64,000 nt of DNA from an uncultured bacterium (lineage in GTDB: Bacteria > Actinomycetota > Thermoleophilia > Solirubrobacterales > 70-9): contig CAVWCC010000013.1 of assembly GCA_963753385.1 (NCBI GenBank), forward strand, positions 13,612 through 77,611, read 5' to 3'. Position 1 is the stretch's first letter, and each line of letters starts with the position of its first letter. Positions 13,055-15,037 of this stretch are shown here, one piece after another. A program made the translations under genes and the position numbers. Under the pieces are notes generated by a model, which worked only from the letters and a program-made list of their open reading frames with translations, made no database searches and was not told where the DNA came from.

Positions 13055-14524
13055 ATGGATGACGCCGTCGCGCTCAGGGCGGCCGGCCAACCACGGCTTT
13101 CCGGGCGGCTATTTGGAGTTCTCACGGACGAGAAGCTCGCGACCATGGTCGCGGGAGGGAACGACGACGCCTTCGGGACGCTCTACGACCGCCATCACCA
13201 GGGCGTCTACCGCTATTGCCTCTCGATGCTGCGGCAGGAGGCCGACGCGCGCGACGCCCTGCAGAGCTCGATGCTGGCCGCACTCGCGTCCCTCCGCGCG
13301 CGTCCGATCGAGGGAGCCTTCAAGCCCTGGCTCTTCCGGATCGCCCACAACGAATCGATCTCGATCATCCGGGGCCGCACCCGAGAGGCGCCCACCGAAG
13401 CTCCGCCCGTGGCGGCCGTCACCGACGATCCGGAGACCCGCGAGGAGCTTCGCACGCTCGTGTCCGATCTCGGAGCGCTCCCCGAGCGGCAACGCGGCGC
13501 GATCGTCATGCGCGAGCTCAGCGGCCTCGCCTACGCCGAGATTGCGGTCGCGCTCGGGACGTCGGAGGCGGGCGGTAAGCAGCTCGTCTACGAGGCACGC
13601 ACGGCGCTGCATGATCTCCGAGCCGGCCATGACATGAGCTGCGAGCTGGTGCGCGAGCGCATCTCGGCGCACGACCGGCGACTGCTGCGGGGGCGCAAGG
13701 TGCGTGCGCACCTTCGAGGCTGCGAGCCGTGCCGGGACTTCGAAGAGGCGATCCGCCGGCGCCGACCCGCCTTCGCTCTCCTCGCGCCGCCCCTTGCACC
13801 GTTCTTTTCGGTTGCGGTGCTGGAGCAGGTGTTCGCGGGAGGCGGAGCGAGCGGCGGCGCCGGCGGTGCAGGGGCCACCGTGGGAACCGCTGGCGTGGCC
13901 TCGGGGGGCGCCCCGATGGCCGGCTCTGTGGCGCTGAAGCTGACGGCCGCGGCACTGGTCACCGGAGCCGTCGGCGTGGGTGCGTATGAGGGGGCGACAG
14001 CGATCTTGGCGGATCCCGCCCCGAAGTCGGCGGCGGCTGCCGGAATCGAAGCCGCGGGCGACCCGGCAGGCCTTGACAGTGCTCGAGACGATGTGATCCA
14101 TGCCTCGCGGGCGCCGTCCGGCCCTGGGGGCAACGGCGGCCCAGGAGGGGGTACCGCCAAGGCCCGGGCGGACTCCGGCGGTCCCAACCTGAGCCCGGCA
14201 AGCGAGCAGGCGGGGCCTGGCGAGGCCGCACCGCCCGGCGCTACCGGCGGTTCGGACGACCCCTCTGCAACCGGTGCCTCCGGCGGTGACAGCACGGGGG
14301 GAAACACTGGTTGGGACCCGGGCGGAGGCACGGTCGGCCCCGGCCCGGACCCCGATCCCGATCCGGACCCAGATCCCGATCCTGATCCCGATCCCGATCC
14401 GCGATCCCGACCCCGATCCCGATCCCGATCCCGACCCCGATCCCGATCCCGATCCCGACCCCGATCCCGATCCGGATCCCGATCCCGATCCCGATCCCGA
14501 TCCCGATCCCGATCCCGATCCTGA
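13055..14524 (+). CDS. ECF sigma factor fused to a ZAS (zf-HC2) anti-sigma domain, a TM segment and a low-complexity extracytoplasmic tail. The PD reading frame continues to a stop at 15000..15002 after frame corrections.
   Basis: Region 2 is FKPWLFRIAHNESISIIR; region 4 is LPERQRGAIVMRELSGLAYAEIAVALG. These are followed by HLRGCEPC (HxxxCxxC), the hydrophobic segment PAFALLAPPLAPFFSVAVLEQVF, a G/A/P-rich linker and the PD repeat. Confidence 0.85.
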   Translation: MDDAVALRAAGQPRLSGRLFGVLTDEKLATMVAGGNDDAFGTLYDRHHQGVYRYCLSMLRQEADARDALQSSMLAALASLRARPIEGAFKPWLFRIAHNESISIIRGRTREAPTEAPPVAAVTDDPETREELRTLVSDLGALPERQRGAIVMRELSGLAYAEIAVALGTSEAGGKQLVYEARTALHDLRAGHDMSCELVRERISAHDRRLLRGRKVRAHLRGCEPCRDFEEAIRRRRPAFALLAPPLAPFFSVAVLEQVFAGGGASGGAGGAGATVGTAGVASGGAPMAGSVALKLTAAALVTGAVGVGAYEGATAILADPAPKSAAAAGIEAAGDPAGLDSARDDVIHASRAPSGPGGNGGPGGGTAKARADSGGPNLSPASEQAGPGEAAPPGATGGSDDPSATGASGGDSTGGNTGWDPGGGTVGPGPDPDPDPDPDPDPDPDPDPRSRPRSRSRSRPRSRSRSRPRSRSGSRSRSRSRSRSRSRS

Positions 14525-14864
14525 CCCCGATCCCGATCCCGATCCCGATCCCGACCCGGATCCCGATCCCGATCCCGACCCCGATCCCGACCCGGACCCC
14601 GACCCCGATCCTGATCCCGATCCCGATCCGACCCGATCCCGATCCCGACCCGGATCCCGACCCGGATCCTGATCCCGAGACCCGGATCCCGACCCGGATC
14701 CCGATCCCGACCCCGATCCTGATCCAGACCCCGATCCTGATCCTGACCCGGACCCGGATCCTGACCCGGACCCGGATCCCGACCCCGATCCAGACCCGGA
14801 CCCGGATCCCGACCCCGATCCAGACCCGGACCCGGATCCCGACCCCGATCCAGACCCCGACCCA
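14345..14864 (+). repeat. Hexanucleotide tandem array (GAYCCN)n, ~520 bp, encoding (Asp-Pro)n. Its last part is organised as three perfect 30-bp units.
   Basis: Directly visible. GACCCGGACCCGGATCCCGACCCCGATCCA occurs 3 times at ~14763-14852. The other frames read (Arg-Ser)n and (Ile-Pro)n-like, and the antisense strand reads (Gly-Ser)n. Confidence 0.95.
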
Positions 14865-15037
14865 TGCGGCGCGCCGCCGGGGACCCCGCCCGGACACGGC
14901 GGCACCCCGCCTGGCCAGGGCGGTACGCCTCCCGGTCAGGCCGGGGGCGACGTCCCGCCGGGCCACATCGGCAACCCAGGGCACGGCGGCGGACGCCCCT
15001 GACGCGCGGCGCCGGCGCCGCGCCGCCTGGCGGGTCG

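Follow-up and report, generated by a model that had tools for sequence, protein, structure and literature searches.

Several groups of actinobacterial extracytoplasmic function (ECF) sigma factors carry further domains on the same polypeptide as the sigma core. In the groups ECF48, ECF52 and ECF53 the sigma factor is fused to a zinc-finger domain, probably a zinc anti-sigma (ZAS) domain, and to one or two transmembrane helices; the extensions reach up to about 400 residues and activation is expected to occur by proteolysis (PMC8999054). The studied case is SCO4117 of Streptomyces coelicolor, an ECF52 protein in which a zinc finger and a transmembrane region are joined to a Pro-rich part and to a carbohydrate-binding module (PMC5826349). 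A gene of comparable layout is located on contig CAVWCC010000013.1, within a stretch of 64,000 nucleotides that was analysed as a whole and is called the window in the following. An initial annotation had described it as one open reading frame (ORF) at 13055-15002 which joins sigma regions, a zinc anti-sigma domain, a membrane anchor, an acidic Asp-Pro (DP) array and a Pro/Gly-rich tail, and had stated that fused ECF groups with a zinc finger and transmembrane helices were already catalogued, in agreement with the groups named above. The overall explanation that we favour, and consider rather probable, is a one-component ECF sigma factor with a ZAS-like segment in cis, a probable membrane tether, a DP spacer and frame breaks of artefactual origin. 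The fused sigma/anti-sigma architecture is an already known actinobacterial design, and the very long DP repeat is the sole oddity of the locus.

The window protein resembles ECF52 and SCO4117 in that one chain combines an ECF sigma factor with a zinc-finger-type segment, a candidate transmembrane segment and a long, Pro-rich and probably extracytoplasmic part, in the occurrence in Actinobacteria and in the proposed release by proteolysis. Zinc motif, candidate transmembrane segment and Pro-rich region follow the ECF core as in ECF52, the candidate transmembrane segment being only marginally hydrophobic. ECF52 proteins end in a carbohydrate-binding module, whereas the window protein ends in a 45-residue tail of [TV]PPG[HQ]GG repeats, and no Pfam domain beyond the sigma domains was found in it or in the 120 listed homologs. 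Because the carbohydrate-binding module is absent, the protein is not an ECF52 member as defined in PMC5826349. Its Pro-rich part, unlike that of ECF52, contains an extreme (Asp-Pro)n array. With ECF48 and ECF53 the protein shares the fused ZAS-like segment, one candidate transmembrane helix and a long extension, in which about 460 residues follow sigma-4 (frame-corrected protein), but the DP array and the heptad tail occur in no member described (PMC8999054; PMC5826349). The groups ECF48, ECF52 and ECF53 were defined by sigma-core phylogeny, whereas the window protein is likened to them here by domain layout and published descriptions. Their restriction to Actinobacteria is consistent with the nearest genomes of the window protein, all of which are Solirubrobacterales/Thermoleophilia metagenome-assembled genomes (MAGs).

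Sigma domains and the zinc-motif segment

The N-terminal part of the protein is a bona fide ECF sigma factor. The annotated regions 2 and 4 were both recovered by Pfam profiles above their cutoffs (Table 1), and the profile TIGR02937 (sigma70-ECF) was passed as well with 66.3 bits against a cutoff of 42.9. The layout is that of ECF sigma factors, with regions 2 and 4 alone and a short linker. In an AlphaFold model of the N-terminal part, built on 104 homologs, the predicted local distance difference test (pLDDT) exceeded 90 over residues 20-245, with residues 111-125 as the sole low-confidence stretch between the two regions. The solved sequences nearest to the sigma part were SigE, RpoE, SigW, CnrH and SigH. 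The best fold matches were ECF sigma chains, several of them taken from sigma/anti-sigma complexes, and the sigma partners of SigW/RsiW and RpoE/RseA were top matches of the sigma part.

The sigma domains are followed by a helical segment for which the initial annotation had claimed a zinc anti-sigma domain around the motif HLRGCEPC. The motif is present at residues 219-226 (13709..13732) with Cys196 upstream of it, and neither an alignment of 33 family members nor one of 104 shows any variation at C196, H219, C223 and C226, which form the motif Cx22Hx3Cx2C. Both alignments revealed further invariant positions, namely D207, R209, L211, R212 and R214 in the Arg-rich stretch DRRLLRGRKVR as well as PP(L) at residues 245-247; R217 is invariant among the 33 members and at least 90% conserved among the 104. 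Sigma domains and Cys/His motif reside on one chain in the window protein and in the 104 aligned homologs, as had been claimed. The AlphaFold model contains helices at residues 196-205, 214-222, 224-243 and 249-261, an arrangement which is predicted to put the four candidate ligands at the positions that ligands occupy in ZAS domains. The segment was modelled with a pLDDT of 93-97 together with the sigma domains versus 71 alone, and this higher confidence beside the sigma domains is an indirect hint of packing in cis. The resemblance extends to the separate ZAS anti-sigma factors of the RsrA, RsiW, RslA and ChrR type, which share the Hx3Cx2C motif with an upstream Cys and a helical segment; RsiW and RslA also have a membrane segment after the helical anti-sigma segment.

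Several results fall short of an assignment as a ZAS domain. The zf-HC2 profile yielded 16 bits with the whole protein and 21.8 bits with the isolated segment, compared to a Pfam cutoff of 22.2. The zf-HC2 alignment covers profile positions 22-35 alone, the HxxxCxxC half, and was found at E ≤ 1 in 26 of 26 scanned family members. A family profile of the segment matched no solved anti-sigma protein in the PDB, and a Foldseek search with the model of the isolated segment (pLDDT 71) gave no match. A fold search with the full N-terminal model retrieved sigma chains only, with poor whole-chain superposition, and the cis complex was not recovered; the placement of sigma-2 relative to sigma-4 agreed poorly with known sigma/anti-sigma complexes (TM-score ~0.5, root mean square deviation ~15 Å). 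The separate ZAS anti-sigma factors are encoded apart from their sigma factors, whereas the window segment is fused in cis, scores just under the zf-HC2 threshold, has no detectable similarity to the solved chains and contains the unusual invariant stretch DRRLLRGRKVR. Of the claimed domain, the invariant Cys/His motif was upheld and the match to the Pfam family stayed just below the threshold, and we refer to the segment as ZAS-like.

Homolog family, conserved tail and probable membrane topology

A search with residues 1-356 (E ≤ 1e-5) matched at least 2116 database proteins. The best 120 of these are mostly 430-555 amino acids long, apart from a few shorter fragments, originate nearly all from soil-type metagenomes and have the sigma domains as their only recorded Pfam matches. 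In a genome scan the nearest loci, L001-L004, belonged to Solirubrobacterales/Thermoleophilia MAGs with 71-77% identity. Inspection of the top 60 homologs, fragments and frameshifted entries aside, revealed a common order of sigma core, C...HxxxCxxC motif, Gly-rich linker, hydrophobic segment and a variable Gly/Ser/Ala/Asp-rich region. The variable region is followed by a short Pro-rich stretch, for instance EPPPSPPAPPGPAPPP, DPPPDPPPPPPDPP or PDPDPPPPPDPDPPPP, and the homologs end in the conserved tail ...PGTPPGHGGTPPGQGGTPPGQAGGxxPPGHxGNPGxGG. In all homologs examined the hydrophobic segment is followed by a long extension, in support of the annotated extracytoplasmic-type extension. Judged by sequence, the protein is one of a family of one-component ECF sigma factors that is widespread in Thermoleophilia/Solirubrobacterales and in which the [TV]PPG[HQ]GG tail, and not the DP tract, represents the conserved outer element.

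The initial annotation had placed one hydrophobic membrane helix behind the zinc motif. Residues 289-311 reach Kyte-Doolittle values of 1.4-1.7 in a 19-residue window, with Arg/Lys on the N-terminal and acidic residues on the C-terminal flank, and contain the nearly invariant K295 (no exception in alignment A1, conservation of at least 90% in A2). In more distant family members the hydrophobic character of the segment is clear (Hessa dG -0.2 in P0059). Residues 238-260 are hydrophobic as well; they hold the invariant APPL and form, in the model, no membrane helix but the final helix of the anti-sigma-like segment. The hydrophobicity of the annotated helix stood up, but two predictions speak against its insertion into the membrane. 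On the Hessa scale the best 19-mer has +3.7 kcal/mol, compared to a median of +3.3 in the family, where just 2 of 104 sequences have a negative value, and AlphaFold modelled residues 289-311 as non-helical, with pLDDT below 50 over residues 262-335.

The same two predictions would be expected if the segment were no membrane helix and the whole protein were cytoplasmic, the Gly/Pro/Asp region with (DP)n forming a disordered cytoplasmic tail that could, for example, modulate turnover or condensation. We regard this as very unlikely in view of the Kyte-Doolittle values, the charged flanks and the hydrophobicity in distant members, as well as the one or two transmembrane helices described for ECF48, ECF52 and ECF53 (PMC8999054). 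The tail argues in the same direction. The [TV]PPG[HQ]GG motif, which matches no Pfam family, also ends small signal-peptide proteins and FecR-domain proteins and adjoins a subtilase domain, and this shared occurrence supports an outside position of the C-terminus of the sigma factor. An extracytoplasmic C-terminus and a membrane-tethered topology are therefore probable. Among the tail-motif proteins (P0121-P0138) are the FecR-domain proteins P0128 and P0132 and the subtilase P0138; the motif was also observed on the single-pass proteins P0126, P0127, P0133 and P0137, whose N-termini look anti-sigma-like by eye and have no Pfam match.

The Asp-Pro array and its reading frame

Tandem-repeat analysis delimited a period-6 array at 14351..14860 with 84.8 copies and 82% matches, which accords with the roughly 85 Asp-Pro dipeptides of the initial annotation. 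Likewise, the Gly/Ala/Pro-rich linker annotated after the hydrophobic segment corresponds to a Gly/Ala/Ser/Pro/Asp-rich stretch, and the Pro/Gly-rich tail was found as described, reading PCGAPPGTPPGHGGTPPGQGGTPPGQ...GGGRP with the stop codon TGA at 15000..15002. The statement that all elements lie in one ORF has to be modified: every element is present, but they share a single frame only after correction, and the ORF as assembled stops at 14524; the initial annotation had spoken of a frame-corrected protein solely among its proposed checks. This ORF of 489 residues runs from the sigma domains through the ZAS-like and hydrophobic segments and the linker into nine DP dipeptides, and terminates in an out-of-frame (SR)n end with a TGA. 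The DP reading occupies frame 2 at 14348-14395, frame 3 at 14403-14624, frame 1 at 14635-14676 and again frame 3 at 14679-14864. In a three-frame translation it leaves the frame of 13055 at about 14402, enters a third frame at about 14630 and changes back at about 14679, and after the last break it continues through PCGAPPGTPPGHGGTPPGQGGTPPGQAGGDVPPGHIGNPGHGGGRP to the TGA at 15000..15002. Removal of the four defects results in a protein of 648 residues with 127 Pro, 112 Asp and 81 Gly.

The array has a coding history that bears on the origin of these breaks. Its 83 clean units contain 60 deviations from GATCCC. In the Asp-Pro frame all 60 affect third codon positions and are synonymous, across all four segments. 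The array therefore evolved as coding (Asp-Pro)n throughout, and this variation is older than the frame breaks. GAT makes up 64% of the Asp codons in the array versus 17% in seven genes of the window, and this atypical usage indicates a recent expansion from a GATCCC seed. The array also holds 30-nt higher-order blocks, and no other large tandem array exists within the 64 kb window.

For the three frame shifts, caused by four off-length units, errors of consensus or assembly are the most likely origin, a reading that we prefer clearly, if not overwhelmingly. If so, the real gene has about 648 codons and extends over 13055..15002. At least two of the four defects are C-run shortenings, and since the tail of the window protein is the conserved tail of the family, the gene is meant to run to 15002. 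Three related loci in long-read-style MAGs (L001, 6001..7900; L004, 6001..7900; L129, 6001..7700) each contain a frameshift inside the orthologous sigma gene, which leaves their database proteins, such as P0045 and P0046, truncated or garbled. The sites differ and lie in the Gly-rich linker, near the sigma linker and in the ZAS region. For a Streptomyces ortholog of SCO4117, which is split in the Pro-rich region, an artefact has likewise been suspected (PMC5826349).

Other observations run counter to an artefact. The full protein is not encoded by the assembled sequence, and owing to the net frame shift of +1 the tail is not read in the frame of the sigma domain. A crude gene call revealed many long, intact and tightly spaced ORFs in the window, so that an error-rich assembly is not evident; the frame plot of GC content at third codon positions (GC3) is too crude to reveal frameshifts elsewhere in the window. 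The breaks may thus be real and mark a recently inactivated or truncated allele, whose 489-residue product would retain only nine DP dipeptides, lack the conserved tail and carry an out-of-frame (Ser-Arg)-rich end. The assembled sequence reads exactly so, the remaining genes of the window look intact, and the 7-nt and 2-nt units are not simple homopolymer miscounts. We nevertheless consider such an allele possible but clearly the less likely explanation. None of the residues invariant in the family is lost from the N-terminal 431 codons, and the motif of the tail is preserved. No non-synonymous change was found in the 83 units, the out-of-frame segments included, and for this reason any inactivation would have been very recent. 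Moreover, slippage of hexamers should add or remove whole units and preserve the frame, and the assemblies of sister MAGs have indel errors in the same gene.

The array is confined to the lineage of the window. It occurs in none of the 120 homologs listed, and none of the top 60 contains more than two consecutive [DE]P dipeptides. In the closest relative found (P0046/L129, with about 90% identity over the N-terminal half), AEPPTPPSPPPDPPSPP stands at the position of the array; relatives generally have a short PPPDPPP-type stretch where the array stands. The distance between the hydrophobic segment and the tail amounts to 81-207 residues in 73 measurable homologs (median 136) and to 295 in the window protein. 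A check of orthologs for the Asp-Pro tract and its length, as the initial annotation had proposed, thus showed that the tract itself is absent and that the spacer varies in length. Other tandem repeats occupy the same spacer position in 9 of the 73 homologs, and in one cluster of 90% identity the alleles are distinguished by small in-frame indels of the spacer. The sequences point to the spacer just before the tail as a hot spot of the family for unrelated tandem repeats, and to the array as a recent, lineage-specific linker expansion and not a conserved sensor. The proposal of a DP rod as sensor module is unsupported by this distribution, while the alternative proposal of a spacer is a defensible reading. 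Repeats observed in spacers elsewhere in the family include (GGGDP)8, (PPPSGGGGGS)3 and (GPTPPPPGGGGG)3, found in the proteins P0016, P0023, P0024 and P0040; the L001 spacer (~7300..7650) holds a Pro-rich block of about 26 residues in about four copies.

A scan of metagenomes for at least 10 GAYCCN units detected more than 120 stretches of 10-35 units among the matches listed, many of them at contig ends; DP-coding arrays of this size are no rarity in metagenomes. None of the listed stretches adjoins this sigma family, and tblastn matches were of low complexity only. A search for proteins combining a DP array with the tail retrieved tail-motif proteins only, and a literature search on Asp-Pro dipeptide repeats gave nothing relevant. 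The absence of the array from all listed homologs and from the relative with about 90% identity, the frequent position of similar arrays at contig ends and the confinement of the frame defects to the array would all be compatible with a repeat that was mis-assembled or over-extended in an ordinary family member. Such an assembly artefact is extremely improbable, since neither consensus noise nor a collapsed or duplicated repeat would give 60 wobble-only differences and 30-nt blocks, and both flanks are in the positions expected for the family (GGG...GPGP before and the tail after the array).

Four further interpretations of the array were dismissed. A Pfam match to procyclin (43.6 bits compared to a cutoff of 100) is compositional. 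The 55 GATC sites in the array were rejected as a signal, with 740 GATC sites present window-wide. Cleavage of acid-labile Asp-Pro bonds as a physiological trigger was discarded, as the tract is not conserved; acid cleavage of Asp-Pro bonds requires conditions far from physiological. Two antisense ORFs of 598 and 669 residues, 13109..14905 (-) and 13588..15597 (-), are mirror images of the repeat and lack a coding GC3 pattern. They are rich in Gly-Ser and Arg-Asp repeats in a high-GC context and could mislead gene callers.

Dipeptide stalks are known from other proteins, among them the Ser-Asp stalks of staphylococcal Clf/Sdr proteins, the (Glu-Pro)/(Lys-Pro) rod of TonB and the Glu-Pro/Asp-Pro repeats of trypanosome procyclins. 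In these proteins short DNA repeats give rise to an acidic array, which serves as an extended spacer between an anchor and a distal element. The DP array resembles them in the working of the spacer only and without homology, these proteins being adhesins, energy transducers and coat proteins.

Table 1 Position of the sigma factor gene, its predicted domains and frame breaks, and of neighbouring features in the window
Feature	Position	Strand	Description
ORF as assembled	13055..14524	+	ATG 13055, TGA 14522..14524; 489 aa
Sigma region 2	13181..13384	+	residues 43-110; PF04542 (Sigma70_r2), 47 bits vs cutoff 24; pLDDT >90; matches to ECF sigma factors in PDB
Sigma region 4	13469..13609	+	residues 139-185; PF08281 (Sigma70_r4_2), 36.7 bits vs cutoff 25.7; pLDDT >90
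Anti-sigma-like helical segment	13640..13837	+	residues 196-261; C196, H219-x3-C223-x2-C226, APPL (244-247), amphipathic last helix
Gly-rich flexible linker	13838..13918	+	residues 262-288; from sequence; pLDDT <50
Candidate single membrane-spanning segment AGSVALKLTAAALVTGAVGVGAY	13919..13987	+	residues 289-311; Kyte-Doolittle 1.4-1.7; near-invariant K295
Low-complexity Gly/Ala/Ser/Pro/Asp spacer	13988..14347	+	residues 312-431; variable among homologs
(GAYCCN)n array coding (Asp-Pro)n	14348..14864	+	83 clean hexamers and 4 off-length units
Frame break 1	14396..14402	+	one 7-nt unit, GATCCGC
Frame break 2	14625..14634	+	two 5-nt units (14625, 14630), GATCC and GACCC
Frame break 3	14677..14678	+	one 2-nt unit, GA
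C-terminal tail with [TV]PPG[HQ]GG heptad repeats (CGAPPGTPPGHGGTPPGQGGTPPGQAGGDVPPGHIGNPGHGGGRP) and TGA	14865..15002	+	frame 3; conserved in family
Sigma-70-type promoter	13019..13046	+	TTGACA, 16 nt spacer, CATAAT; 11/12 consensus; ends 8 nt before ATG
ORF of 82 aa, weak FlgM (anti-sigma-28)-like match	12414..12662	+	Pfam 21.1 bits vs cutoff 25; TIGR03824 19.4 bits
Conserved ORF, 121 codons	12628..12993	+	coding-type GC3 from ~12733; matches N-terminal part of HD_5-domain protein
Adenylate/guanylate cyclase and AAA_16 gene, 1074 aa	15038..18262	-	cyclase domain, then AAA_16 ATPase domain

Gene context and proposed working of the sigma factor

A sigma-70-type promoter directly precedes the gene, whereas 0.2 such sites were expected in shuffled sequences. 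Both hexamers are kept in L001, L002 and L004, and the -10 hexamer also in L003. The sigma gene appears to form its own transcription unit, driven by the housekeeping sigma factor. Since the -10 hexamer ends 8 nt before the start codon, the mRNA would probably be leaderless or nearly so. The FlgM-like ORF is located upstream of the sigma gene in L001-L004 and has a counterpart with 48% identity over the full length in L127; it may encode a second regulator of this sigma factor or be unrelated to it. The counterpart of the 121-codon ORF in L127 (4376..4942) and L003 is a protein of 188 residues with an HD_5/HD domain, full-length in L127, and the HD domain is seemingly missing from this ORF in the window, L001, L002 and L004. 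Downstream, the cyclase/AAA_16 gene is oriented towards the sigma gene; only 35 nt separate the two, a terminator-like site is absent, and the arrangement is not syntenic in relatives. Farther upstream, the gene 9463..10569 (+) strongly matches the catalytic domain of Tle1-like phospholipases of type VI secretion systems (PF09994, 287 bits); the host is apparently a Thermoleophilia-like actinobacterium.

In the mechanism that we propose, the ZAS-like segment would hold the sigma-2 and sigma-4 domains inactive in cis, and the Ala/Gly-rich hydrophobic segment would probably tether the protein to the membrane. The remaining ~330 residues would constitute a disordered, Pro-rich and very acidic extracytoplasmic region ending in the [TV]PPG[HQ]GG tail. 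By analogy with ECF52/SCO4117 and with classical anti-sigma factors, we infer that regulated proteolysis would act on the exposed or the membrane part during activation, or that the Cys/His site would be oxidised or lose its zinc; either event would free the sigma domains. The DP array of about 86 units stands outside this conserved machinery, as a recent hexanucleotide expansion of the short Pro/Asp stretch that relatives have before the tail, and would most likely act as a stiff polyanionic spacer only, with a length of about 50 nm if extended as a polyproline-II helix.

A further-reaching idea, which we judge unlikely, is that the array is real and in frame in the living cell and acts as a molecular ruler that can be tuned genetically, with the polyanionic polyproline-II helix as a rod about 50 nm long. 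Such a rod would determine the reach of the TPPGxGG tail into or beyond the cell wall, and hence the threshold above which events at the wall or surface lead to the release of the sigma factor by proteolysis. Hexamers gained or lost would provide a rapid and heritable retuning, which would explain why the spacer of this family is a hot spot of repeat expansion.

The DP array mainly illustrates how fast the spacer evolves, and it carries the practical warning that such repeats break gene calls in assemblies. For specialists the locus offers a useful observation at the level of the family and no surprise. Fused one-component ECF sigma factors are catalogued and almost unstudied, and the locus represents a large, previously uncharacterised Thermoleophilia branch of them. 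This branch is distinctive in that it possesses no globular outer sensor, only a variable Pro-rich spacer and the conserved [TV]PPG[HQ]GG tail. If the tail, and not a folded domain, receives the signal, these proteins would couple the cell surface to transcription in a different way.

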